A stretch of DNA of 40,385 nt from Vezdaea acicularis. Its lineage: Eukaryota. The translations under genes and the position numbers were made by a program. Numbering within the stretch: the stretch's first letter is position 1; every line of letters starts with the position of its first letter. Below are positions 1 through 37,600 of this stretch, piece by piece. Under the pieces are notes generated by a model. It did not search any database. It was given only the letters and a program-made list of their open reading frames with translations, and was not told the origin of the DNA. The DNA is taken from assembly GCA_026025075.1 (NCBI GenBank), contig JAPEUI010000031.1, positions 124,001 to 164,385 on the forward strand. Direction: 5' to 3'.

Positions 1-1852
1 AGCAATCACGGAAACCCGTGGCATGGACATGACAGTATACCGCCGCTGCGGCTTCCTCAGCCGTCGACTCATCTGACGGACGGCATCGCGACGAACCTTC
101 CTTCCAGGTCGGGACAAGCCATTGAGTCATCGACCAGCCGAATGGCGAGCCCCAGCTCTCGAAGAGCATCTCTCGCTGCACTTCAAGAGTCAGGGCACAG
201 CCAAAGCTCGAAAAGCACATCGATCATCCCGTCTCTCCAGATTCCTCCTGAGATCAACGATAGTCAAGGCAGTCTGGCGGAATTCGCTGCTCAGGTATGA
301 CGACCACAAAGGATGATTGAGGTGTGCACAGATCAAGAACGGAAGAGCTGACTATTCACTTCTAGATCACCTGTCTTTTTTGGTTCGAGACCTCCTATAC
401 CCTTCAACGAGTTGAGGAAGCGACGTGGACGCCGACTCATGTCACGCCTCTGGTGCCGGAAGCAATACCCACCCTAGGGTTCAGAAAATGGGTCACAACG
501 ATATTGACGACGACGCAAGTTTCGCAAAATGTCATCCTCCTCGCCCTGTTATTCATCTACCGGCTGAAGGCTCAAAATACGTCGGTGAAGGGCAAGGCGG
601 GAAGCGAATACCGACTTTTGACGGTAGCGTTGATGTTGGGCAATAAATGTGAGTTTGTCACTCCTCTACTATGACATTGCATATGTGCCATGCCATGTGC
701 TGAGTGCTAATTTTCCACCGTTTAGTTCTCGACGATAATACGTATACCAACAAAACGTGGGCTGAAGTATCGGGCATATCGGTGCAAGAGATCCACATCA
801 TGGAGGTCGAATTCCTCAGTAACATGAGATACAGCCTTTTCACCTCGGAAAGGGAATGGAAGGAATGGTACGCGAAGCTCAGGAAGTTTTGGGACTACTT
901 CGATCGAGCGTCCAAGGAGCCCCAGGAGGTCAAGACTCAGCTTTCAGGGCCCCTTGCGCCCCAGCTTCACATTCCGTTACCGTTGCCGTCACCTCCAGCA
1001 TCGACCCATACATCACCACCGTTCTTTTCATCAAACCAGCAAAACAATCAAAGCTACCATCACAACATGTCTGTCCCACCGCTGAATGCTGCTATCCCAT
1101 CGCCGGCCGCGTCGGTGCCGGATATCGATGCGATGTACAGAGCTAGGAAGCGGAGCTATGACGAGAGCAGCCACGAGCCACCAGCAAAACGGCTGGCACG
1201 TTCAATGGCGCCGTTACCCGCGACTTCTCAGATCTCTCGGGCACCGTCGTACACCCCAACGGCAATGCAGCACATGCCACGCTTACCCGTCCCCAATCTG
1301 TCGCTTCCGAATACGCAATCACCTAACCAATACCCCAACTACGCGCAGGCTCCGTTGCCATTACCCAGCCGTGCCATGTCCATGGTCTATCAAGGGACTC
1401 CACCACCCGTCGCTTGGTCTCAACCAAACTATACGCCCACGAGCATCGGACCGTCCGGTTTGGGCTCTCACGCTGCTGCGCCTTCATGGTCTGATCAACG
1501 AAAACCTTCACCGTACTCGTTGACCACATGTACCTCCTCGCCCTCAACCAACTTCTCCGCTACAACACCAAATCAGAGTAATCTGTCCCCATCTTTCTTC
1601 CTTACACAACGAAGCTCTCCCTATCGGCCGGTACGAAATGTGCACACGTTGTTGGTCCCGCCGCCCTCGGCATCCATGCACAATCCAAGCCAGAACCTGG
1701 GCATCAGCCAGATGCACTACCAGTCGCTAGGCCGGCCGCGAAACGAATGCAAGACAGGCGTCGTGCCGCACGTGAACCACGAGGCCTGGCCTCCGATGCA
1801 GCACCCGTCGAGGGATTGGCCGCAGTTTCCACTGCCCAACTTTAATGTCTGA
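1..1852 (+). CDS. CLG1: Pho80/PCL-family cyclin, Clg1-like; 5'-truncated. Exons <1-294, 366-648, 726-1852
   Basis: Frame 1 is open from 1 to 294. Intron 295-365 (GTATGA..GCTGAC..TAG) and intron 649-725 (GTGAGT..GCTAAT..TAG) splice to give GSLAEFAAQ|ITCLFWFE and LMLGNK|FLDDNTYTNKTWAEVSG..IHIMEVEFL, the cyclin box typical of fungal Clg1-like cyclins. A long P/S/Q-rich tail follows. Confidence 0.88.
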
Positions 1853-3987: not shown

Positions 3988-5065
3988 TCAAATTCCGAAG
4001 CCGCCGTAGTTCGAGCCGCGGTGGTTGGAGTGTTGGTAGAGGCTGCTCGCATATTCCGACTGCTGCGTGTCTTGATAGATAGTGGTGCGGCGATCCTCTT
4101 CCGGTAGTAGCTCCTTGACCTCCCAGTTGTGCTGCTTGGTCCCGACGCTGAACTCGAGATCTTCCTTCGTGATCGAGTCCCAGTACTTATAAATCATCAT
4201 GACGGCGAGCAGGTTGCACATGGTGGCGAAGAAGAGGCCGTCGAGGTAGTGCTGGACTTGATCGCAGATCGTCTGGCTGAAGACGTACAGGATCACCTGG
4301 CCGACGACGAAGAAGAAGACGCCGAAGAGGATGTCTCCGAGTGGCCACCGGTCTTGTAGCGTGTTCACCACGAGAAGCACCTGGAGGAGGACGTAGATGA
4401 ATAGGAAGATGCCGTTGATCAGGTACAGGACGACGAAGAGGCCGATTGTGTTGGTGGGACCCAGCGAGCCGACGCTCTTGAACGTCATGATTGAGACCGC
4501 CCCACATATGAGGAACATGAAGAGGGAGGCGCCTCGGAGAAGCCACACCGACATTCTCGTCCCATCCTCATACAGCTGGAACCCCACGAACCCGTTGACA
4601 AAGAGGCAAGTCACCAGCGCGGATGTGAGTCCGTTCTGTACCGCAGCGAAGTATGGATAGGCACCCGTGCCGGGAGGAATTACGCCAGAGTCCAGGATGA
4701 GCGACCAAACGGTCAGAACCATGTAGATATAGAAGAATGTCGTGATCTCCTTCCGACCTAAATATAGCGCATGGACTTTTAGCGAAACCGACTTGGTACC
4801 TCCGAGACAAGACACGAAAACACTCACCGACGGCCGTAAACTTCGATCGCACATGGATGACCATGATGATGGTCATCAGCAGTGCGACAATGTGCATGAA
4901 GCTCGCCGCTCCTTGGAAGATGATCGTGTTGGCCAGCTCGATGCTTCGCGCATAGCATTCGGGCTGGATACCTGTCGACCCAATGATGGGAGAAGGCGGG
5001 CCGACGAGAGAGCAAAGGGGGATCGCTGTCTTGCGACATATCGATCCGAAATCCCCAAATCCCAT
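3988..5065 (-). CDS. CHS7: Chitin synthase export chaperone Chs7, 335 aa, multi-pass membrane protein. Exons 5065-4828, 4757-3988
   Basis: Motifs MGFGDFGSIC, CYARSIELANTIIF, HVRSKFTAVG|RKEI (junction made by GTGAGT..TAG intron 4827-4758), NGFVGFQLYEDGT and YKYWDSITKEDLEFSVG are hallmarks of Chs7. Confidence 0.96.
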
Positions 5066-9612: not shown

Positions 9613-11213
9613 CTAAGCATCATGAATAAGCCTATGCACGGCCGGAACCGCGCTTGGAGGCACACTTCCATATTCTGTGATGACCATCTTGATGTACTCC
9701 GCCGGCGTAAGATCATACATGAGATTCAGCAGGTGCAGCCCCTTGACGCCCCTCCACGCCCCCAGCTCATCTCCAGCCTCCCGCACGACCAGCTCTTCCG
9801 GCGGCGCGATCTCGTTCCTGGCGATACTGTCCGCTGGCACTTCATCCGTAAACTTGATGCCTTCGCAGCACACGATGACGGGAACGCCGGCATCGTAGGC
9901 GCTCATGGCCACCTGCGCGGTGCCTACGCGCGAGTACAGCGCCCCGTCAAACATCATGGCGTGTGCGCCTAGGAAGACTTTTGTGGCGGACCTCATGGCG
10001 GAGGTCAACCCGGTGGTCAGGTAGTATTGCACTTCTATGCCATGGCTCGCGAGGGCGCGCTTGAGGTTCTTGCCCTCGAAGAGCGGGCGCGAGTCGACGA
10101 CAATCACCCTAAATGTTTTCCCGGACGCGGCGAGATCATCATAGGCTTTGATCATGGTCTGTTCCACGATGCTGCTTTTGGCGTAGGTGAGCACCACGTC
10201 ACCGCCGACTATCTGGGAGGCGGCGCTGGTGGCGATGACCTGGTCGGCGACGGTTAGGCGCTCACGGATGAAGTTGTCGATCCACATGCAGAGCTCGGTA
10301 GTGGCGCGGTTGTCGGGGGTGTTGATGTGGGTTTTGGAGATGGCGCGCTTGAGAAGGCGCATTGCGTTGGACATGGAGATGGAGAAGGGACGGCATGTCT
10401 TGAGAAATTTAATTTGGGGTGAGAAGTACGTTTGGCCGAGATGAAGGGACAGGGCTGTGCCAGGGGGTGTGGTGTAGGAAGCGATGACCTAGGGATATGA
10501 TTAGTAATGTGGAGGTAGACTTCAAGGGGTAAGAGTAAAAGAGGCCTTACGCTCTTGAATGCTAAGAGCATCGCAACGCAGCGAGCACTGCTCCCACATA
10601 TTACGTAGTGGCTTAGTTGTAGGCCTAAAGCAAGAATGCGCGGGTGGATGTCTTTTCCGGCCGTTGTAATGCTGCCCCTTTTACCTTGCCCTGGGTCCTC
10701 ATACAGATGGCTGAGCAGCTCGACATGTTTATCTTCTTCTGGAGGTTTGGTAAGCTCGTGTGAATGTGATGTAGTCCCTCGTATAGGTAGCTGAGACTGG
10801 TCGGCGCCCTTCGGCCCAAGTTGCTTGCCATGCTTCCCAGATCCTGGCGTTGGAAGGGCCTGGCCCTTTTGTGCTACTGCTTTTGCATTTTGTGGCTTTC
10901 CTGCCTCTTGTTTGGAGTTTGTTCCGTTCTGCTGTGGAGGTGGGGCTACTCGACTCGCTGCGCGCTTTGCTTGCTTTTCAGCTTGCTTCTTCTTTTTCAG
11001 CTCTGCACCAGAGATTTTCTCTTCCTTTGTTGGGGCCGGTGGTGGTTGAGGCTTCCCAATTTGTGTAGACTTTGAATCTGCTTTGGGGGGAGGTGTTTGT
11101 TCCAGCGCTGTCGTTGAGGGCTCGGCAGTGGCTGTTATGTCGAATGGAATTGTTTTGGGGACCATAGAAGCTCTTCGACTACCACTAGCGGTAGTAGTAT
11201 TCACTGGTGCCAT
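9613..11213 (-). CDS. GCD2: Translation initiation factor eIF2B delta subunit, about 512 aa. Exons 11213-10551, 10488-9613
   Basis: Motifs IHPRILALGL, VICGSSARCVAML, AFKS|VIASYTTP (intron 10550-10489, GTAAGG..ACTAAT..TAG), VVDSRPLFEG, FLGAHA, YSRVGTA and NLMYDLTP..YIKMVITEYG match IF-2B family delta. The start codon was chosen as the first ATG in good context. Confidence 0.93.
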
Positions 11214-15043: not shown

Positions 15044-16130
15044 CTACGTGATCTTCTCCCTCCGCAAATCGTTCACAACCATATACCTGCTGACCAGGAT
15101 CCACCCCCAACGAAACCACCTCATCTGACTCTTATGGGCGCCCACCATCGCCCTCTGCGCGCGCCAATACTCCAGTGGACCGCTCACAAACAGCAACTTG
15201 CCGGCCTTGGCCGTACTGCCCTCCGTGACGCCCCCCAGCACCACAAGCGCCATACTCACAATGGCATCGAAGACGCCGGTATACTTCCTCAGCATGCTCA
15301 CGCTGCGCAGACTGTACAGCTCGACGGGACAGGCCCAGCCATCCTTCCCTTTCATGAGGCTGGCGAGGTAGGCGCGCGCGCCGTGGAAGAGCGAGGTGTG
15401 GTTGGGGTGGAGCGAGACGCCTGCGGCGTCGAAGGTGAGGAGGAGGTCGATGCTGGCTTGTGGCGGGCAGGCGCTGGCGTCTCGTGTGAAGGCGCTGTGG
15501 AGGAGTGAGGTTATTTTCGCGGCGGGCCAGTTCGTGGTCATGCTGTCGGGGAAGGAGGGGTCGTCGACGACATAGACGTCGTCGCGGTGGCGGAGGCCGA
15601 GGGTGAGGACCGAGTCGATGAGTTCTTTCTTGCGCGTCTCGCCGAGGTTTTCGGCGTTGCCTGGGGAGGTTAGGATGGGGGGTTATGTGAGGGGTGGGGG
15701 GGGATAGGGGGGGGGGCGGACCGCTACAGAGACAGAGCACCTTGACGTGATTGCCTAGCTCGCGCCGGGTCAATTCGAGGAGGGTTGGTGCGAAGAACAT
15801 TGCCTCGTCGTCTGGGTGGGCGATTAGGAGGCAGATGCGCTTGTTCCGGATGACGGGGAAGGTGCGCCGCGTTGTCGAGGCCGTGTAGAACCATGTCGTG
15901 AAGAGGAGGATGACGAACGTCGCGAGGAAGAGGAAGGAGGGGAACGAGGAGGACGGAGCGTCGTTTGAGAGAGTCGGGCGCGTGACAGGTGGCGGAGGAG
16001 GCGCGAAGGGCTTTGCGGTGTAGAGCGACTTGGACGTGGAGTATGCTTTTGTGGAGGCCGAGGAGGCCGACGGCGGGTTGAAGGAGTACGAATAAGGAGT
16101 GTATACGGGCGGCGCGTAGGGCGTCGCCAT
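15044..16130 (-). CDS. GPI12: GlcNAc-PI de-N-acetylase PIG-L/Gpi12, about 341 aa. Exons 16130-15722, 15660-15044
   Basis: A transmembrane anchor, then ICLLIAHPDDEAMFFAPT, LCSG|NAENLGETRKKEL (intron 15721-15661, GTCCGC..CCTAAC..CAG), LLTFDAAGVSLHPNH and AHKSQMRWFRWGW..SRYMVVNDL. Confidence 0.95.
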
Positions 16131-19438: not shown

Positions 19439-22400
19439 ATGGCGAACGGACTTAGTCTCTTTCCCTCGACTCTGACAACGCAAAAGTATCGCTGTCTGCT
19501 CGTCGAGCGTGGGAAGAGTGTATACTGTACGCACGACGGCTGTCGGAGGGTCAAGGCACCATCATGGGCAAGTCAGGCTCTGAGCGAGCCTTGCGGACCG
19601 CCTCCTTCTGCGCCTTTGCCTGCAATCCCTCAGCCTATCACAAGGCCGGATACGGCCACCACCCTCCAGCCTTCGAGGCCACCCCCCACGAACGAGGCTA
19701 CGATAGCCTTTAACACCGATCGATTTCCTTCGTTTTCGAGCTCAACCGCCGACAGCGACCTTCCGACGTTCTTAAATAGATACAATTCCACCGGAGATTC
19801 GTCTGACCGCAGGGCAGGCGTCATCCTTCCAGCGATGGAGCTCGATCGATCCTTGTCTGTGACTGTATCTCAGAATTCTTCTGCTAGAGCTTCCTACTTC
19901 AGCGCCACGAATCCAGTCTCGCCCATCACCACTTCGTACTCTGAGGAGACTGGACTGGAGCCGATGAGGGAGACAGTAGAAGTAGTGCCATCGCCGAGTC
20001 TCCGGCGTTCATCCTCCTCGCCAGATCTAAAGTGGCAGGAGTTTCCTCCGCCAAAAGAGCTTTTGATTTACGATGAAAACATTGCGCCAGAGCTTGTCAA
20101 TATCATCAAGGATGCGTTACTACAGAACGGGCCAGCCGGAAAAGCTCATAAAAGCCAACCTCAAACAATCCCAGAGCATGGCCTACCGGCGCCACCTCCA
20201 GTAATCTCGCAGACCTCCCGCACCGACAGCATGGATGGCCCCATGCTTGCTCATGAGGTAGCATTGGAGGCAGATCAGCCGGGTCTCCAGGTGGTGCGAG
20301 GTCCAGCGTCTCCACAGAAAGCAAAGACCCCTGCCCCGAGCGTCTCGTCGTCTTCGAGCATCCGATCTGTACCAGACACCCAGCGACCAACGCACCGTCT
20401 CTTCATGCGCGCCTTATCGTCGAAAAGCTCAGGGGATCACCGCCATGGAAGCAGTGAGCATAGCTCGTCCATTACGACATCTTTCATGCATAGACGTGCA
20501 AACAGTAAAGGTAGCAAGGAAGGCACGCCTAATGGCTCCGTCAGTAAGCTACTTACGCCTACCTCTCGTCGGTCCCTTTCCTAACCCTCGAACGCACAGG
20601 TACCTTGTCCGCGAAACACATCGATTCTTCTAGAACCCTAGGCGGAACCTCTATCGCTCCAGCACCGCCTAAAGAAAAGATGAGCAAAGGCAAGGAGAAG
20701 AATATTCTAGCGTGTGTATAGCCTTTGCCCCATGCACATTCCAGATCCTAACCTGCTCTTTAGTAATTGTGGATCGTGCATGGCAGAATGCAGGAACAGA
20801 AATCTGGTTATATTAGACTGCAACCACAAGTTTTGCAAAGTGTGCTTTCCAAATTTACTCCTGTAAGTCAATTCTACACGGCTCGGCTGGGGGCGTCACC
20901 AAAGCATGGCGACGTAATGTGCAGCACACCTCGAGGCAAGCCAGGCCACCATCTGACGACTCCAGAGTTCAAGGGTTTACTCTCTTTCATCGAGACTAAC
21001 GAGCGGAGTAGGAAAACAATAGATGATGAGGCAATGTTTCCTCCGGCCTGCTGCGGCCTTCCCGTTTCGATGAAGGAGATCCAAGCAAATCTTGATGCCA
21101 ACGAAAGGACGCTTTACAAGCAAAAGGAGAAGGAATTTGGCACACCGCTGGACAGTCGCCTTTATTGCCCATCCAAGAGTTGCGGCAAATGGATCGAAGT
21201 ACCTAAACGGGTCAAAAGTGCCAAGATCACCAAAGCGCCTGATGCTGTTTGCAGTGCTTGCAACACGGTCGTTTGTGTATCATGCCATCAAGAAGCCCAC
21301 CCCGATTATGATGCTTGCCCGCAAGAATTCACCGGTAATTCGAGCCCGCAAAGGACGCAGCGTAATGGTTGGCAGCAATGCCCTGCGTGCCGTGTTGCGG
21401 TCAGGTCCATTTCGGGTAGTCATCACCTCAGTTGTGATTGTGGCGCTGAGTTCTGCGGCCTTTGCGCCGCTGAATGGAAAACGTGCCTCTGTCCCGAACA
21501 TAATAGGTACGAAGAGCCGCCAGTGGGAATGGAGAAGCGTGGAAGCCTACAAAAGGATGACGCAGCCGATTCTGCCGCGGCCCTACGCGCTGTCGCCAAA
21601 ATAACATCAGCGAAAGCCCAGGAGGAGGAGCGCTTAGAAGCTGAGAGACGTGAGCAGCATGCTCAAGAGATTGCAGCACGTCGTGGCCAGGTCGAGGCAA
21701 AATTCAGAAGCTTGGAAATGCAATTGAACAGGATTCACGATCGTCAGAGAGCGCTGATGTATCAACGGCATGAGAATGAAGCAAAAGCCCTTCGTGAAGG
21801 GCAGACTGTCGACAGGTCTGATGGCTCTGAAGTTAAAGCCAGGCAAACGTCCGAGTCGCACCGCGAGAAGCTCGAAGCGCTGGAGAGAGAGCATGCTCTA
21901 GCTGTCGCCGAGATGGATGCACGCCATCAAGACGAAGAAGATGACACCTTCGTCAGCATCACACGCGCATATCGCACAAAGCCCGACAAAGACGCGAGAG
22001 TGAACAGCATGATGGAAAAACTAGCCAAGATGCAAGCAGAGGAGAGAGCAGAACTTGCTCAAACTCAGAGTGCGGAGCGCGAGAAGCTGGTGCGGCAAGA
22101 ACAAGACGAGACGGCTGAAGCGGAACGGGCACTCATCGCGCGCGACCGTTTCCGCCGTGACCAGGTCGCGCGGCAGAGCCGCATGCAGATGAAGAGGGTT
22201 TGGGCTGATGGGGAGTGGATGAATGCTGTCATTGAGACGCGCTACCGTCTGCTCGAGAATGAGCAACAACACCAGATTGCCGATGCGGTAGACGACGCGG
22301 TCAGTCAAGCCCCAGATGATAGACCGGTGTTGCCAGCCATCGACGAGAAACATCTCTATAGCTTCGTCGAGAGCCCGTTGCATCCACTTGAAGAGCAGCA

Positions 22401-22440
22401 GGAACGCAGGGTGCTCCGCTCATATGGCATTGACCACTGA
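19439..22440 (+). CDS. RBR-family (RING1-IBR-RING2) ubiquitin-ligase-like protein with disordered N-terminus and coiled-coil C-terminus, about 914 aa. Exons 19439-20543, 20600-20711, 20764-20862, 21012-22440
   Basis: Splicing restores RING1 (CGSC..LDCNHKFCKVC..L|KTIDDEAMFPPACC). IBR is RLYCPSKSC..CSAC..CVSCHQEAH..C and RING2 is WQQCPAC..HLSCDCGAEFCGLC..WKTCLC. The introns have CTAAC branch sites. The start codon is uncertain. Confidence 0.85.
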
Positions 22441-22742
22441 AAACGTCCAGCGAGGAAAATTACTCTGTACCCATGATTAGTCAAGTCGGGATAGTCAACT
22501 CCAGCTGTCGACCCACCAAGGACACACCAGGATGTAGTCCTCTATCACCATGTTCAAGGCAAAGCTCCTTGGTTAAGAAGATTGAGGGAGTTTTGGAGCT
22601 CGTTGGTGTTCGCTCGCGATACTCAATCGGCGTTGTCAGATCGGAGCTGCACGATGCTGGGCACGGGAGTCACCGATGTGGGTATCCACGGCTCGTTTAC
22701 CGAAAACTCAGGTACCATCGCTCGGCCGAGACTGGCGCCCGT

Positions 22743-22773: not shown

Positions 22774-23391
22774 CTTTTAGCGTCCATTCGTCAATCGTGT
22801 CACAGAAACGGGACGATCCCGTTTGAGATACAGCCGACGCGCGGTTGCTTCAAAACTGAGATATTTCTTGCCACGATACACCGGCTATCAAAGCATAACG
22901 GCTGAAGTCGTGTCGGCCCGAATGAATCAAGGCCCATTGTTTCTTTGCCGCACACTGCGCGCAAGAGCTGGGTCGCGGTGGCTTTACACCGAATCCTTCG
23001 ACGATCACGGTTTAGGTTTAAAGGCCGCTGCGAAACGTGGGTGAGGAAGTCTCCTCATGAATGTGATCTCTTCCACGGGCCCGATGATGGCTCGTGACCC
23101 TCGACCACATCCTTCTAGAACACGGTATGGTAGACAGAAGTTCCCCATGGGTGGCCCGGTCTCCCGGAGCTATCTCCTTACGCCACTGGGCTGCGCGCTT
23201 TAAGCGTATCAATTGTTTAGCTCCAACATCGCCCTTCAGCTTAAGAGTTAACTGTTTTCCATTCTAGGAAAGTCCCAAGCTCCGTCTCTCTCCAGATTTT
23301 CCCTGGAATGCCACCCTGTAAATACTCCTTGTATCGGCCTCGATGATAGTCTCATGGATTGGAGTACCAGCTTCGACTCCACGCGACAAAC

Positions 23392-24468
23392 ATGCGGTTC
23401 CCTTCCTTCGTCACGGCGCTCGGCGTTGTCGTGTTCTTTGCTGATCAGGTCGTTGCTCCTTTACCCGAAGGTGGCCTTCCAGATAACTTCTGGAGCAGCC
23501 TTCCTACGATAGGAGAGGATGACGACTGGCCCGACATCTTCTCAAGCGCCGAGGCGGACATGGATCTCTCCGAAGTCTTCCCCAACGTACCGATCGACGT
23601 TTCACCCGGCTCTCTGCTCGATGAGTCACCACTCGTCCCGCTCGACATGAAGGACCAATACGCATTCATAGACTGCCCGGGCCCGCTCCCGCAAGCCTTC
23701 TTCCCCCCCGAACGCCCGCGAGAGCTCTTCAACAACCTCCAAAGCCTCTGCTCCTTCGCCGGCCTCTTCGTCTCGCAATTCTCCGTCAACATGGGCTGCG
23801 GCTGCCGCGACCCCACCAACCCCTTCGGCGGCGCCATCCACTGCTACCGACCGCCCGTCGCCGACCCGCTCCTCTGGGACGTCATCCCTCTGAGGGAACA
23901 CTGCCATCGCTTCTGCCGCTGCCGGAACGTCCCCGAAGGCACCCCCGGCTACACCGGCATCTACTACGGCGACCCCGCCATCGAGAAAGCGCTCCGCAGC
24001 TCCGGACCCATCGACCACCGCAGGCCCCGCCCCCAGCCCTCCTCCCTCTCCCGCTCCTCCTCCGACTCCGACCACTCCTCCAAAGACCTCGCCAACAACC
24101 TCCCCTCCGACTGCCTCGCCACTTCCCACTCCCACCGCTCCGCACTCACCCGCTGCCCCTCCTGCATGGACCCTTGCTCCAGCAACGCCGACTGTAATAG
24201 CCATCCCAACTGCCGCTGCGCCGCCCTCTCCCGCGTCGGCCGCGATCGCTCACACTGGCAGTCTTGGTGCGGCATCCTCTCCCCGCGCAGCGGCATCGGC
24301 CGCAGAACCCTCGACCTCGTCCCCGACCTCAATCTCGACACGCCGCCCTGCGTCTGCAATGCCACGTACGTCAGCCACGCCTGCTGCGCTGCCGACGACG
24401 GTCTCGTCTTCGAACATCCCTCCTTCAGGCTTGGCGCGCTGCTGAACGAGACGGTTCCGGATTTATGA
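23392..24468 (+). CDS. Secreted cysteine-rich protein of unknown function, 358 aa, single exon
   Basis: ATG in AAAC-ATG context, hydrophobic signal-like N-terminus MRFPSFVTALGVVVFFA, acidic pro-like region, 20 Cys in clusters, strong C bias at third codon positions, and C-terminal CVCNATYVSHACC..DGLVFE..FRLG. Confidence 0.82.
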   Translation: MRFPSFVTALGVVVFFADQVVAPLPEGGLPDNFWSSLPTIGEDDDWPDIFSSAEADMDLSEVFPNVPIDVSPGSLLDESPLVPLDMKDQYAFIDCPGPLPQAFFPPERPRELFNNLQSLCSFAGLFVSQFSVNMGCGCRDPTNPFGGAIHCYRPPVADPLLWDVIPLREHCHRFCRCRNVPEGTPGYTGIYYGDPAIEKALRSSGPIDHRRPRPQPSSLSRSSSDSDHSSKDLANNLPSDCLATSHSHRSALTRCPSCMDPCSSNADCNSHPNCRCAALSRVGRDRSHWQSWCGILSPRSGIGRRTLDLVPDLNLDTPPCVCNATYVSHACCAADDGLVFEHPSFRLGALLNETVPDL

Positions 24469-30430: not shown

Positions 30431-32443
30431 TCATTCGAACGGTTTCCAAGCGCCTCGATCTCCAAATTGAGATTCGCAGTCTTCCAGCCAGTCACAGCTG
30501 AGGACTTGTCGAATGTCCCAGCGCGCCTCCTGGTCCGTCTCCAAGCAGCCCCTGACGAGCTCGACGGCATACTCTTCGGTGCCGACAACGCCGGGGGCGT
30601 GGCGGAGATTGTCTTCGTTCCATTCGCCCCGCAGGATCATCATGATGACGCCTGGTTCGAAACGGCCTCGGAAGGGTAGGTTCCCCACTAAGAGTGCGTA
30701 CACGACAACGCCGTACGCCCAGATGTCCGTGGCGGGGTTGTGCAGGCCAGCTGGCGCATCCAGGACTTCGGGAGCGGCGTATTGGAGACTGCCGGCTATT
30801 GACGTGCTTGTGGCAGACGGTCCGATGTTTCTTGTTGACAGATGATCGGACACGGGGTCATAAGGAGGCAATAGCGCTGACTGTCGGTCGTAGGTGCTCT
30901 CGGGACTAATTGGCGCTGCCATTCCAAAGTCGCACAGGATGACGTTTCCTCCCGTCTCTTCGGCATCAGCTTCGGACTTGTCTAATAGGCAGTTCTCGAG
31001 CTTGACATCGCGATGTACGATCCTTTTTTCCTCGTGGAGGTAACAGATTGCGGAAGCAAGCTGGTACGAATACCTCCGTGCGATATCACCGCGCAAGCCT
31101 TGGCGGTTCACGCTGATCAGGTCGAAGAGTGTGCCATGGACGTAGCGTTCCATCACACAATAAGTCGCGAGAGGAGTGTAATACACTGCGATCAAAGGCA
31201 GAATATAGCGATGGTGCAGCCCTCTCCATAGTTCCACCTCTTGCTTGAAGTTATCTTGAAGCTGCTCGTTCTCGTCATCCTGCCTGCCGTCTACTTGTCT
31301 CCGTACAATCTTGACTGCACGTGTGATGCCCACGCCATTCTCCACGGTGTGGGCTTCTCGAACGGTGCTAAAGCCTCCGTACCCTATCTTCTTCCCAATC
31401 TGGTAATCGCCTACTTCCTGTTCCTCGAGCAATTGACTAGGCGAGATGGGGCTATAATTAGAGAGAAAGTCCTGTGCGGGCGATTTGGCAGACGATGATG
31501 ACTGCGCCCGAAGGGCTCCTCTACGGAGGCGGGGTTCGGTCACGCCGAAACTCTGGACCCGCCGGTTTGGATACCGCATCCTGGTTGCCGGCCAAGCCAT
31601 GGTGTCTTCCAGGGATATGGGTGGTGGAATGGATGATGTCATGGGAGAGCGGACGAAGTCCATCTGCTCGGGCTCCCGGACAGGTTCCTGTCGGTCTGCG
31701 CCGCCTTCACCCGACTGAACTTTCACCGGAGCTGAGCTCTGCATCCCTGGAGCACCGGCATCTTTCGCCGCCAGCTCATCGACCGTGGACTGCAGAAGAG
31801 GATAGTTGGCCTCCCCCTTGTGGTATTTCTGTCGCTTTTCACTGTTTTTGGTACGCCGGGATGTCCTGTTGATGTGCTGCCCGGTTTCTGGATCATATTC
31901 CCACCGGTGGGACTCGCTATGAGCTCGCGTGAGCGGTCTGTACGACATGGAGTCTGCGAGCTCCTGTAACATGGATCGGCCCCTAATTCGACGCTCTGCT
32001 TTTGGGAGGCGTTTCTCGAGCTCATATTGACCACCACCGCTCGTCGTCACATTCGGACTAAAGCTGATCGAGGTATTCCGGGATCGACGGAAAGCTTCTT
32101 CGAACGGCGAGGAGTTTTCGTCTCGATTGAGTGGTGGCGCCTCATCGTCCACAAAGGTGTCGACTCCACTGTTGGGTGGAGTTGGGACGTTGATCGGAGG
32201 GGTTGAAGTATGTTCGGATTCGCCTTCATCTGGTCCTCGGTGCGGAGAAGGGTTGCCAAGACGGTACCTGTCCAAGTACTGCTGCGCTTCTGTTCTTCGG
32301 GGTTGGCGCTCTTTGAAAGCACTCAGCCGTCCGGCCTTTCCAAACTCTTGAGTTGGGGAGACGGTAGATGACGAGGCGGGGGATGTGGAGTTGGAAGTAT
32401 CGAGCCTACGAAGCCGGGGTTTCTCCAACGGTAATGGAGCCAT
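30431..32443 (-). CDS. Ser/Thr protein kinase (CAMK-like group, probably Nnk1-like), 670 aa, single exon, C-terminal catalytic domain
   Basis: Motifs IGYGGFSTV, AVKIV, HRDVKLENCL, LCDFG, GSLQYAAPE and DIWAYGV are all intact. The subfamily assignment is from recollection only. Confidence 0.93.
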   Translation of the reverse strand: MAPLPLEKPRLRRLDTSNSTSPASSSTVSPTQEFGKAGRLSAFKERQPRRTEAQQYLDRYRLGNPSPHRGPDEGESEHTSTPPINVPTPPNSGVDTFVDDEAPPLNRDENSSPFEEAFRRSRNTSISFSPNVTTSGGGQYELEKRLPKAERRIRGRSMLQELADSMSYRPLTRAHSESHRWEYDPETGQHINRTSRRTKNSEKRQKYHKGEANYPLLQSTVDELAAKDAGAPGMQSSAPVKVQSGEGGADRQEPVREPEQMDFVRSPMTSSIPPPISLEDTMAWPATRMRYPNRRVQSFGVTEPRLRRGALRAQSSSSAKSPAQDFLSNYSPISPSQLLEEQEVGDYQIGKKIGYGGFSTVREAHTVENGVGITRAVKIVRRQVDGRQDDENEQLQDNFKQEVELWRGLHHRYILPLIAVYYTPLATYCVMERYVHGTLFDLISVNRQGLRGDIARRYSYQLASAICYLHEEKRIVHRDVKLENCLLDKSEADAEETGGNVILCDFGMAAPISPESTYDRQSALLPPYDPVSDHLSTRNIGPSATSTSIAGSLQYAAPEVLDAPAGLHNPATDIWAYGVVVYALLVGNLPFRGRFEPGVIMMILRGEWNEDNLRHAPGVVGTEEYAVELVRGCLETDQEARWDIRQVLSCDWLEDCESQFGDRGAWKPFE

Positions 32444-34697: not shown

Positions 34698-37600
34698 ATG
34701 ACGCGACCGCAAATCATACGCGCAGGTAGGATCCCTTTGGTGGAAGAGAATTATGAACGACGCAATGTGTGCCATTTTAGCAGAACATCGCAGCTGGAGT
34801 GTGTGATGCAGCCGGGCTGACGGGTTCTGCTTTAGATACTATCGATTTACAAGATGTTGATGCCCCCTCCGCGAAAGACCATACCCGCCAGCCTACCCAT
34901 CCAGCTCCTTTGGGAGCCGGCCCACCCTCCCCCCACCAAGCAGGTGCTCTGAGACGAGCAGAAGACGATTCAATCGAGCAAAAGCAGCACAGCCCAAGCG
35001 CATCACAAGACTTCAATTCTACCGATATTCACAATCAGAATTCGATTACAGCCCATGGCGAAGGTGAAGCTGGCCATCCTCAGCAGAATGGCGGCCTCAA
35101 CGGTACGCAAGGGGAGGATGGAGAATTGGCAGATTCAGAGGGCGACGACGGTCTGGACGATGATATGCTGGACAAAATATCAAGCTCTCCGTCAATAGAC
35201 GATGGTGGGTCAAAGCTTCCCATATACTGGCCGCTTCGGAAAGACTCATTGTCTTCCTGTTCTTCTCCCAATACGCCATCATCTGCTCGTCAGATGATGG
35301 AGCTGTCTTCTTCTCCTTTTCTCTCGACGCCTCTTCATTTTCCTCTATCTTCTCATCAAGACGGTGTGGTCGAGGATCAAACAAGCCATCATCAGATAAT
35401 AGGTTCGTATAAGGCCAACTTCATCCAGATTGGACATGTCAACGACGACAAGGACGACTTTGAGGACGAAGACCGTGATCTAGTTGGCCCTCTACTCTCA
35501 GAGCAGGATCCCGGTTTTTTCAACACGCAGGAGCAGTATGAGCGCCCGCATTCCCCTTACGACGCCTCTTTCGAGGTTAACCAATTTTACAATCTTCTTC
35601 TTCCGTCCTCGGATCACCTGCTGGACGGCATTCGAGAACGGGACCTTGCCCGTTCGAGCTATGATTGGGACTCTATCTTTGATGGACGGCCGGTTCCTGA
35701 AGAACTTCCAGCATTTGATGATGATGATGATTGCTTCGATGATCCCGGCTCCCCGGATGATGAGCTTTTCTTTCCTGATGATCTTCGCTATGTCGCCACT
35801 GGATGGGGGGGAGATTGCTTACGAGAACTAGAGGATATCGATTTCGAGTTCGTCTACGCCCTTCATACGTTTGTGGCTACCGTCGAGGGCCAGGCAAATG
35901 CAACGAAAGGCGACACCATGGTCTTGCTGGACGATAGCAACAGCTACTGGTGGCTCGTCAGAGTTGTCAAGGATAGCAGTATAGGTAAACTCACTTGGTG
36001 TATGATAGACCTACGTCGCATGGCTGACTGTTTTTTGCCTCTAGGCTACTTACCTGCAGAACATATCGAAACACCGACAGAACGGTTGGCTCGACTGAAT
36101 AAGCACAGGAATATAGACGTAAGCTTGATTGAATCGCAATGGCTCGATAGTACTGACCTTCGTCAAGCTCTCTGCAACCATGTTATCAGACAATGCAGAG
36201 AAGTCGAAAAACCCCCTCAAGAAGGCCATAAGACGGCGAAATGCCAAGACTGTTCAATTCGCCGCACCAACGTATTACGAGGCTGCGGAGATAGATTATT
36301 CATCGTCAGAAGAAGACGGGGAAGGAGAGTCTCCATCGACTGATGACCATGCCGGTGAGGATGAAGAGAGTCAGAAGGACGACCGAGATGAGATCACTGC
36401 GGTTGAGCCGCTGAAGGTTCGGGCTCCTGGCAAAGAACGGGGCAATGAGGCCGTCGGTAAACCGGACCAGGCTTCAGCTACCGCTGAAGCTGAAGCAAGA
36501 GCGGCTCCCGATGTGCAGCAATTGGCTGAAGATGACGCCGACGCACAAAGTAAGCGTAGCCTAGCAGATCTTAGGAAAGCTTTACTAATGACTATTCTAG
36601 TTGCTGCTGCTGAACGAAAGACCAAAGCCGGAACCGTTCGGAATACGGATTCGTTCTTTGGTGACAGTACCCAGGAAACTCGTAAGATCAGTCTGACTCC
36701 CAAGCTACTCTCAGACGATTCTAGCAATGCATCCACCAAGTCCACCGACTCAAAAGAGGTAAGGGTCTCTCAGTCCTCAATGATCAATGATACTGACCTT
36801 TTGCGCAGCCGGTCAAGTCTAGAGGTAGCATCGAGACAGCCGAGAAAGTGGCTTCTCCTGTTGAGAAGAGTAAAGAGGACAAGAAGAAGAAAGAGAAGAA
36901 GCCTGGTATGCTCAGTGGGCTCTTCAAGAGAAGCAAAGAGAAGAAGAATAAAGCTCAGGATGAGGAAGCAGACGATGGCGTTCCTTCCGAGAAACTCTCT
37001 GGAGATTCTGCGCGGTCGTCTCCCGTCCAGAAGACCTCGGAAGACTCATCGCCGATGGAAACACAGGCGCCACTGTCCGTGATATCACCACAGGCTCCAA
37101 ACCGCCAGCCAAGCAAACTTCAGAAGCCTCCTCCCCTTGATGTTTCTACCAGTAAACCAGCAGCACAGCCTCTTGTCCGTGACGTGCAACCACCAACGGT
37201 CCAGGCTCCTGATCGTCCTGCGCCTACAATCGAGCAGGCTACGACGATGCGGGCGGTCGAGCCTGGATACGAGGATCAAGACCGCCCGGCGCCGCTGAGA
37301 ATACAGACGGGAAGTAGAAGCGGAGGTGGGGAAAGTACGCCAGAGCCGAAGAAAGAAGCCAAGGAGGGTATGTTCTCGCCGCTCACGAACATGCTCAGGT
37401 CGTCCTCGAACTCGGAACCAAAGCCCGAGAAAGTCAAGAAAGCCAAGCAGCGGGTCGAGCTTGATGAGTTTGACTCGTCGCCCGATACGGAAGAATCGCC
37501 AGAGCCTATGGCTAGAAGGCAAGGCCCAGGAAGCGGTCCTCATGAGCCTGTGCACCATACCGACCCGCTTTCGGAGTCTCCCGTGCATGTGTCCGCGTCA

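Follow-up and report, generated by a model that had tools for sequence, protein, structure and literature searches.

A natural RBR protein with serine at the catalytic RING2 position in the fungus Vezdaea acicularis

Introduction

The RBR (RING1-IBR-RING2) E3 ligases act as relays, as described in PMC9834252: RING1 binds the E2~ubiquitin conjugate, ubiquitin is passed to a cysteine of RING2 as a thioester and from there it goes to the substrate. The same paper calls this cysteine essential, and the concept of a catalytic triad in RBRs is found there and in PMC3709503. Here we describe an RBR gene from Vezdaea acicularis, a lichen-type fungus, in which a serine codon stands in place of the codon for this cysteine. 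For the genus, the establishment of isolates of a new Vezdaea species has been reported (PMC13616976). The gene lies in a stretch of 40,385 nucleotides (GenBank assembly GCA_026025075.1, contig JAPEUI010000031.1, positions 124,001 to 164,385), which we call the window and whose numbering is used throughout. Its protein was identified by exact look-up as KAI9859861.1 (P0152), a record of 946 amino acids named 'MAG: hypothetical protein M1824_003641 [Vezdaea acicularis]', where MAG stands for metagenome-assembled genome.

The closest described counterparts of such a protein were made in the laboratory. Oxyester charging with ubiquitin has been described for Cys-to-Ser versions of HHARI, HOIP and parkin (PMC3305615, PMC3549971). 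Parkin C431S is folded and is reported to form a NaOH-labile ubiquitin oxyester, with no polyubiquitination of substrates and no support of mitophagy (PMC3549971). Ester chemistry is also known from a natural RBR, HOIL-1 (RBCK1), which has a Trp at the position of the triad His and a C-terminal His that completes the triad. HOIL-1 esterifies its substrates through its own nucleophile, Cys460, and C460A is inactive (PMC9834252).

Homologues of ubiquitin enzymes that lack catalytic competence are also known from RING and UBC folds. The UEV proteins (Mms2/UEV1A) are catalytically incompetent E2 variants that serve in complexes. On the side of the ligases, BARD1 and TRAF2 have been named as pseudo-E3s (PMC13061254). 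No natural RBR without the catalytic cysteine was found in print by a search that lay mostly outside the subscription journals. Our literature search also found no experimental papers on the family to which the present gene belongs, the Pezizomycotina FPPxCC RBR family.

A serine at the catalytic position of RING2

The RING2 of the V. acicularis protein reads CPACRVAVRSISGSHHLSCDCGAEFCGLCAAEWKTCLC. The codon at the catalytic position (21418-21420, plus strand) is AGT, and its frame is that of a long open exon, where the serine is residue 165 of the translated open reading frame (ORF) P0001. When the protein was compared with the PDB using phmmer, this serine was aligned with the cysteine of GGC-N-H-M-V-C in RING2 of human ARIH1 (7b5m_H, residues 342-381), which is C357 in the numbering of the full-length protein. 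The best PDB match of all was a nuclear magnetic resonance construct, 2m9y, whose printed sequence also has a serine at the catalytic position.

By its sequence the gene is the V. acicularis member of an RBR E3 ligase family that occurs throughout Pezizomycotina and is marked by a long helical tail. When 1.84 billion representatives were scanned in full with HMMER, 3284 proteins matched at E ≤ 1e-3, of which 1106 also passed E ≤ 1e-10. The named members are from Pezizomycotina and are labelled 'RBR-type E3 ubiquitin transferase' or 'IBR domain-containing protein'. The V. acicularis protein has the collinear N-terminal motifs, the RBR module and the helical tail of the FPPxCC family, and is orthologous to a member from V. 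aestivalis, KAI9894851.1 (P0003), which is discussed below.

In an alignment with 149 cluster representatives of this family the catalytic column is 99% Cys. Among 265 other family proteins, with some redundancy from one Ophidiomyces cluster, the column is Cys in 262, Glu in 2 (both from one cluster), Tyr in 1 and Ser in none. The eight cysteines that remain in the V. acicularis RING2 all occupy the family's eight zinc-ligand columns, therefore no spare RING2 cysteine is left for catalysis. The catalytic cysteine of G-C-x-H, on which the thioester relay runs, is thus a serine, and no alternative cysteine is at hand. One mark of a pseudoenzyme, the lack of a catalytic residue retained by its active homologues, is therefore present. 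A-to-I editing of the RNA was considered as a way of restoring the cysteine and is ruled out, since an edited AGT would become GGT (Gly).

The factual claims of the initial annotation, which was made from the letters of the window, are borne out by these comparisons. It had read RING2 exactly as given above, with serine in place of the catalytic cysteine, and had described the ORF and the structural zinc ligands as otherwise intact; we find an open frame and 24 of 24 zinc ligands. It had also allowed that the catalytic cysteine might be found at another conserved position, and the alignment leaves no such position in RING2.

The partners of the cysteine in the triad are retained. The His two residues after the catalytic position is present, in a column that is 98% His among the 149 representatives and invariant in alignment A1 (H139). 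The Glu of A-E-F-C falls in a column where 161 of the 265 proteins have Glu and 92 have Gln; by position alone it would correspond to the Glu or Gln of the triad, the equivalent of parkin E444. Read across the three columns, 161/265 proteins are Cys-His-Glu and 92/265 are Cys-His-Gln, and the V. acicularis protein is Ser-His-Glu. Two other clusters of the family have lost the catalytic cysteine, one represented by P0022 (Tyr; RPA98372.1 of Choiromyces venosus) and the other by P0139/P0154 (Glu). Unlike the V. acicularis protein, these have lost the triad His as well. The end branch of P0022 is the longest in the tree (2.78); that of the V. acicularis protein is 2.25 and the median is 0.61.

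A Ser-His-Glu site brings to mind the triads of hydrolases, and one can ask whether the chemistry has been altered and not lost. Ubiquitin charged as an oxyester could then be passed on, slowly or to unusual acceptors, or be held as a signalling state. We regard this as improbable, with evidence on both sides. The His and Glu are kept, the serine still offers a nucleophile where the Tyr or Glu of the other Cys-less members does not, and the engineered serine mutants of parkin, HHARI and HOIP do become charged as oxyesters (PMC3549971, PMC3305615). However, serine is one base away from cysteine (AGT/TGT), hence the likeliest accidental replacement, and it is used by 0/265 of the other members. 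In the engineered case the oxyester is described as a dead end for the ubiquitination of substrates (PMC3549971).

Agreement among assemblies

The window comes from a metagenome assembly, and the gene could really read TGT, with the serine due to an error of sequencing or assembly or to a rare variant, somatic or of one strain. The initial annotation had singled out base 21418 for this reason. Contigs from three sequencing runs (X1, X2 and X3) span this base and are 99+% identical to the window. Their changes relative to the window are of the types A>G, G>A and G>C. TGT would need an A>T and none is present, which argues that the codon is not an assembly error. The word depths of these contigs are low (9.1, 5.5 and 4.4), and the check was made on contigs, not raw reads, of three runs that all belong to one study; these points leave some room for an error. 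Against it, four assemblies are concordant (the window, the three run contigs without the A>T, and the proteins P0002 and P0152, from the CPTC haplotype described next and from the NCBI MAG, which both read G-S-H-H). Furthermore, the serine sits within a loop that bears many other lineage-specific changes, which is beyond any single-base error. We consider an artefact, or a rare variant, extremely unlikely.

A G/A polymorphism lies nearby, at 21385. The window and the NCBI MAG have GCG (Ala, CPAC), and ACG (Thr, CPTC) is found in the contigs of X1-X3, in those of a further run, X5, and in the protein P0002. Because all of the X1-X3 contigs carry the G>A change they are not copies of the window, and because of this polymorphism at least two haplotypes carry the serine.

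Run X5 contains a relative that is ~92-94% identical to the window (81 differences in 985 bases and 50 in 759). Two A>T changes are present in X5 somewhere within 20700-22500, and one of them may fall on base 21418; the differing places listed are 40 of 129.

An orthologue that retains the cysteine

The closest relative of the V. acicularis protein, P0003 of V. aestivalis, keeps the catalytic cysteine in G-C-R-H-M-T-C. The two proteins are collinear from the C-x12-C-x-H-D-x-C motif near the N-terminus to the HPLEE...YGI motif at the C-terminus. P0003 is also far ahead of other proteins in BLAST searches with the flanks of the RBR module, with E values of 3e-15 against 1e-3 for the next match at the N-terminus, and 2e-34 against 9e-18 at the C-terminus. 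When the tree was constrained to pair P0003 with the V. acicularis protein its log-likelihood was 13.55 above that of the free quick tree (p of the approximately unbiased test, p-AU, 0.78). Because of the collinearity, the flank matches and the preference for the constrained tree, we take P0003 to be the orthologue. A free tree of the RBR region alone had joined the V. acicularis protein to P0022; this grouping was flagged as long-branch attraction and was rejected in view of the constrained tree and the flank searches.

We also looked for a second copy in V. acicularis. No V. acicularis twin is present among 120 listed of 143 matches to the RBR region of P0003 in a shared-word search, which is weak evidence against a Cys-bearing twin, as the V. 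acicularis RBR protein itself is also missing from the 120. A search for proteins of close relatives with the V. acicularis RBR region returned only the query protein itself, and a second one, sized for short partial ORFs, gave no match at E ≤ 1e-20; the collection searched thus does not include the protein of the relative in X5. A scan of metagenome contigs found one locus (L001) with 33% identity, which is at the level of a paralogue and was not used.

Zinc ligands and fold

The RBR module of the V. acicularis protein differs from P0003 at 112 of 191 positions, yet all 24 zinc ligands are kept. RING1 is of the C3HC4 type, with CGSC...CNH..C..C on the third exon and FPPACC (Cys codons 21049-21054) on the fourth, and all eight of its columns are conserved; the Pfam RING models match the third exon below their curated cut-offs. 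The IBR retains all eight columns of its C6HC pattern. RING2 has its eight ligands within an RBR-like fold, and its match to Pfam IBR_1 is weak and under the threshold (E = 0.28). Relative to the RING2 of P0003, substitutions fall at 20 of 30 non-ligand positions and spare the ligands altogether (0 of 8; hand count on the alignment; hypergeometric p ~9e-4). From these sequences the zinc-ligand scaffold appears to be under constraint.

Conservation among the 149 representatives reaches 85% or more in 38 columns, and the V. acicularis protein departs from these at two, the catalytic Cys and the loop Glu. The latter column is Glu in 92% of the representatives and in 251/265 proteins; here it is Arg.

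The AlphaFold2 model of the part encoded by the fourth exon has a mean predicted local distance difference test (pLDDT) score of 85.3 and a predicted template modelling (pTM) score of 0.53, and shows a long helix directly after RING2. A Foldseek search with this model gave 46 PDB matches at E ≤ 1e-3, and those listed are all parkin, HOIP, ARIH1/2, HOIL-1 or RNF216. The high root-mean-square deviations of these matches arise because the domains are arranged differently. The helical region that follows has no Pfam family above threshold, and is matched in BLAST searches by P0003 (1.9e-34) and, with E values from 1e-17 upwards, by many further proteins of the family. A further motif of this tail is RVWA..EW.NAV.

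Rate of evolution

Relative to its Cys-bearing orthologue, the V. acicularis protein shows a 3-5-fold faster evolution that is confined to the RBR module; the flanks are symmetric. In Tajima relative-rate tests of the module with Thelocarpon (P0034) as the outgroup, unique changes number 41 in V. acicularis against 8 in P0003 (p = 2.4e-6); with five other outgroups the respective counts are 31-38 and 11-16 (p 0.029 to 1e-4). With P0034 as the outgroup, the C-terminal region has 24 changes in V. acicularis against 28 in P0003 (p 0.58) and the N-terminal region 25 against 29 (p 0.59).

Where do these changes fall? We define a private departure as a difference from the other protein and from at least 7 of 12 outgroups. 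The V. acicularis protein has 29 and P0003 has 8, and those of the former lie mainly in the linker between IBR and RING2 and in the active-site loop of RING2. In the linker the consensus D.GLeATLeeAE has become EFTGNSSPQRTQ. In RING2 the loop MVEL..GCRHiTC has become AVRS..GSHHLSC, and FCYTCG has become FCGLCA.

This distribution bears upon the altered chemistry raised above, since changes that cluster at the active site and linker are what remodelling would give. Two of them argue the other way: the loop Glu found in 251/265 proteins is Arg, and Gly replaces the aromatic residue conserved in F-C-Y/W-x-C. In its specific form, that of a natural Ser-His-Glu RBR that holds ubiquitin as a long-lived, hydrolysis-resistant 'loaded' oxyester or transfers it to hydroxyl groups or other unusual acceptors, we rate the idea as improbable. 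Were it true, the Ser-His-Glu RBR would add a third type of nucleophile to those used by E3 ligases, and the changes in linker and loop would be adaptive and not a matter of decay.

The comparison with the relative in X5 gives a more recent view. It points to recent purifying selection, with introns that diverge more than exons and differences in the third exon that are mostly synonymous. The second intron differs at 8 of 52 positions and the third at 24 or more of 146; the third exon differs at 6 of 99 (4 synonymous, 2 non-synonymous). The exons are ~2.5 times less diverged from X5 than the introns.

The change from cysteine to serine might instead be a recent loss of function in a dispensable member of a multi-copy family, in which case the gene would be a pseudogene in the making with no retained role. 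The family is large, with its 3284 matches at E ≤ 1e-3, and the cysteine has been lost at least twice elsewhere (P0022 and the P0139 cluster). The many extra substitutions in the RBR module, and the fall of RING2 below the Pfam IBR_1 threshold, would also suit such decay. However, the gene has an intact frame of 915 codons and three introns with good signals, the 24 ligands have outlasted change at more than half of the positions around them, and the flanks change at the rate of the orthologue. The lower divergence of exons relative to introns, and the concentration of differences at synonymous sites, likewise speak against decay, and ~30 excess changes in the RBR module argue that the shift was not very recent. 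We find early decay unlikely.

Interpretation

We think it probable that the gene encodes a lineage-specific pseudo-ligase, a protein that has kept the zinc fold and has been retained for a non-catalytic role. We favour this reading because the linker and active-site loop have changed fast, the ligands have been protected, the flanks have evolved at a normal rate and the exons are more conserved than the introns. By analogy with the engineered Cys-to-Ser mutants we infer that ligase activity has probably been lost, and we further infer that the retained role is a non-catalytic one. The initial annotation had left the choice between a pseudo-ligase, with scaffold, E2~Ub decoy and ubiquitin trap as candidate forms, and a ligase of altered chemistry. 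The former has been strengthened, as only the RBR module has sped up and mostly in the linker and active-site loop; the latter has gained nothing beyond the retained His and Glu.

Several points weigh against a pseudo-ligase. The triad His and Glu are kept, and a fully dead site would not need them. Adaptive remodelling for new chemistry would likewise account for the faster change of the linker and active-site loop. The purifying selection seen against X5 may partly predate the change from cysteine to serine, and the estimate of selection from the third exon is based on six differences. Conservation of the flanks is low in every species (19-30% identity), which limits the power of the relative-rate test to detect relaxation there. 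A second copy, with the cysteine, may exist in the V. acicularis genome. Finally, the contigs that were used to check the base come from a single study.

If the protein is a pseudo-ligase, its history and mechanism could be as follows. The nucleophilic cysteine of RING2 would have become serine in the V. acicularis lineage, and the protein would have remained of use after its catalytic constraint ended, some time ago. With all 24 zinc ligands in place the folds of RING1, IBR and RING2 would persist, and RING1 may have kept its ability to bind E2~ubiquitin. A serine, however, could not sustain the thioester relay; at best a slow and stable ubiquitin oxyester would form on it. The non-catalytic job would be done through the conserved N-terminal motifs, the zinc modules and the coiled-coil tail. 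Candidate roles include that of a scaffold working through the helical tail, that of an adaptor, the binding of E2 by RING1, and competition with active paralogues.

How does such a protein compare with those already described? Like ARIH1/HHARI C357S (the construct of 2m9y) and parkin C431S, it has a serine at the catalytic position of RING2, intact zinc ligands and a His at +2. Those proteins are laboratory mutants of active enzymes, whereas the V. acicularis serine is natural and is accompanied by ~30 further lineage-specific changes in the linker and RING2, including that of the loop Glu to Arg. Its RING2 also has low identity to that of ARIH1, and the protein has no Ariadne or Ubl domain. 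With other FPPxCC RBRs (such as KAI9894851.1 of V. aestivalis and PGH11444.1 of Polytolypa hystricis) it shares the architecture, the collinearity, the zinc ligands and the triad His and Glu. It differs from them in its serine, where 262/265 have the catalytic cysteine, and in the rate of its RBR module relative to that of the orthologue.

The likeness to HOIL-1 is that of an RBR tied to oxyester chemistry with an unusual active site; in HOIL-1 the nucleophile is a cysteine, whereas here the protein's own nucleophile position would offer an oxygen. As a ubiquitin-enzyme homologue that would lack catalytic competence the protein resembles BARD1 and TRAF2, which serve in complexes. In contrast, these and the UEV proteins have RING or UBC folds and demonstrated partners, and the V. 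acicularis protein is an RBR known from its sequence.

The catalytic cysteine defines the RBR mechanism, and this gene shows that natural RBRs without it exist. It also suggests that the linker and catalytic loop of such RBRs can drift without loss of the zinc scaffold. The main value of the finding is the natural pair of Cys and Ser orthologues. The Cys-bearing orthologue of the sister species is a built-in control, and the pair is a natural experiment on which parts of an RBR serve purposes other than catalysis; the native serine site is in addition a ready test of ubiquitin trapping. The scope is that of one lineage of an obscure fungus, in a family for which we found no studied member.

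Gene model and neighbourhood

The coordinates of the gene, its domains and its neighbours are collected in Table 1. Our revised model has four exons and codes for 915 amino acids, with a complete RING1-IBR-RING2 module (approximately residues 400-620) and the triad His and Glu; all three of its introns have GT...CTAAC...AG signals. The deposited model, KAI9859861.1, splices ...KEKNILA directly into the frame of the long ORF. It skips the exon that holds most of RING1 and translates intron sequence within 20700-21010 (LQPQVLQSV...GHHLTTPEF...). The revised RING1 (CGSC...CNHKFCKVC...FPPACC) can be aligned without gaps to that of P0003, and the alignment of the fourth exon extends to the C-terminal motif common to both proteins. 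That most of RING1 is on a separate exon, and that the deposited model omits this exon, are additions to the initial annotation.

The relative in X5 supports the revised exon borders, because the introns have diverged more than the third exon. A model with a shorter third intron (acceptor at 20923-20924) was tried and rejected. It adds 28 residues that have no counterpart in the orthologue. X5 also lacks its acceptor, which is destroyed there by changes at 20920, 20923 and 20924.

Table 1. Positions of the RBR gene, its encoded domains and neighbouring ORFs within the window.
Feature	Positions	Strand	Description
Exon 1	19439-20543	+	ATG; Ser/Pro-rich N-terminal region; matches N-terminus of KAI9859861.1
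Intron 1	20544-20599	+	56 nucleotides, GTAAGC...CTAAC...CAG; junction as in deposited model
Exon 2	20600-20711	+	ends ...KEKMSKGKEKNILA
Intron 2	20712-20763	+	52 nucleotides, GTGTGT...CTAAC...TAG; absent from deposited model
Exon 3	20764-20862	+	first six RING1 ligands, CGSC...CNH..C..C; gap-free to P0003 RING1 and family consensus
Intron 3	20863-21008	+	146 nucleotides, GTAAGT...ACTAAC...AG
Exon 4	21009-22440	+	end of RING1, IBR, RING2, helical C-terminal region of ~300 amino acids, stop codon
IBR domain	21166-21318	+	Pfam PF01485, E = 1.1e-11, 45.1 bits (cut-off 24.3); 8/8 C6HC ligands
IBR-RING2 linker	21319-21378	+	family consensus D.GLeATLeeAE..GW; here EFTGNSSPQRTQRNGW; departures private to the V. 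acicularis protein
RING2	21379-21492	+	8/8 zinc-ligand Cys
Loop Arg	21403-21405	+	AGG (Arg) replaces family Glu in the V-E-x-x-x-G-C loop
Catalytic-position Ser	21418-21420	+	AGT
Triad His	21424-21426	+	CAC, Cys+2
Triad-position Glu	21448-21450	+	GAG in A-E-F-C
C-terminal helical region	21493-22437	+	motifs H.DEEDDTF..IT and HPLEE...YGI; family-wide
Cyclin family ORF	704-1852		family match
Chs7 chitin-synthase chaperone ORF	3988-4854	-	family match
eIF-2B family ORF	9613-10374	-	family match
PIG-L ORF	15132-16130	-	family match
Protein kinase ORF	30431-32443	-	family match
SH3 ORF	34799-36343		family match

The first exon has three motifs in common with the V. aestivalis orthologue, namely C-x12-C-x-H-D-x-C near the N-terminus, APEL and QPGLQVV. 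The first of these lies at 19487-19549 (YRCLLVERGKSVYCTHDGCRR) and its V. aestivalis counterpart is HRCQL...LCWHDHC. It has no Pfam match; from the spacing of its residues it may be a small zinc knuckle.

The neighbourhood consists of ordinary fungal chromosomal genes, with no cluster linked to the RBR gene. Directly downstream of the gene is an ORF of 369 amino acids (23359-24468, plus strand) without a Pfam match, which is rich in cysteine and has a hydrophobic start.

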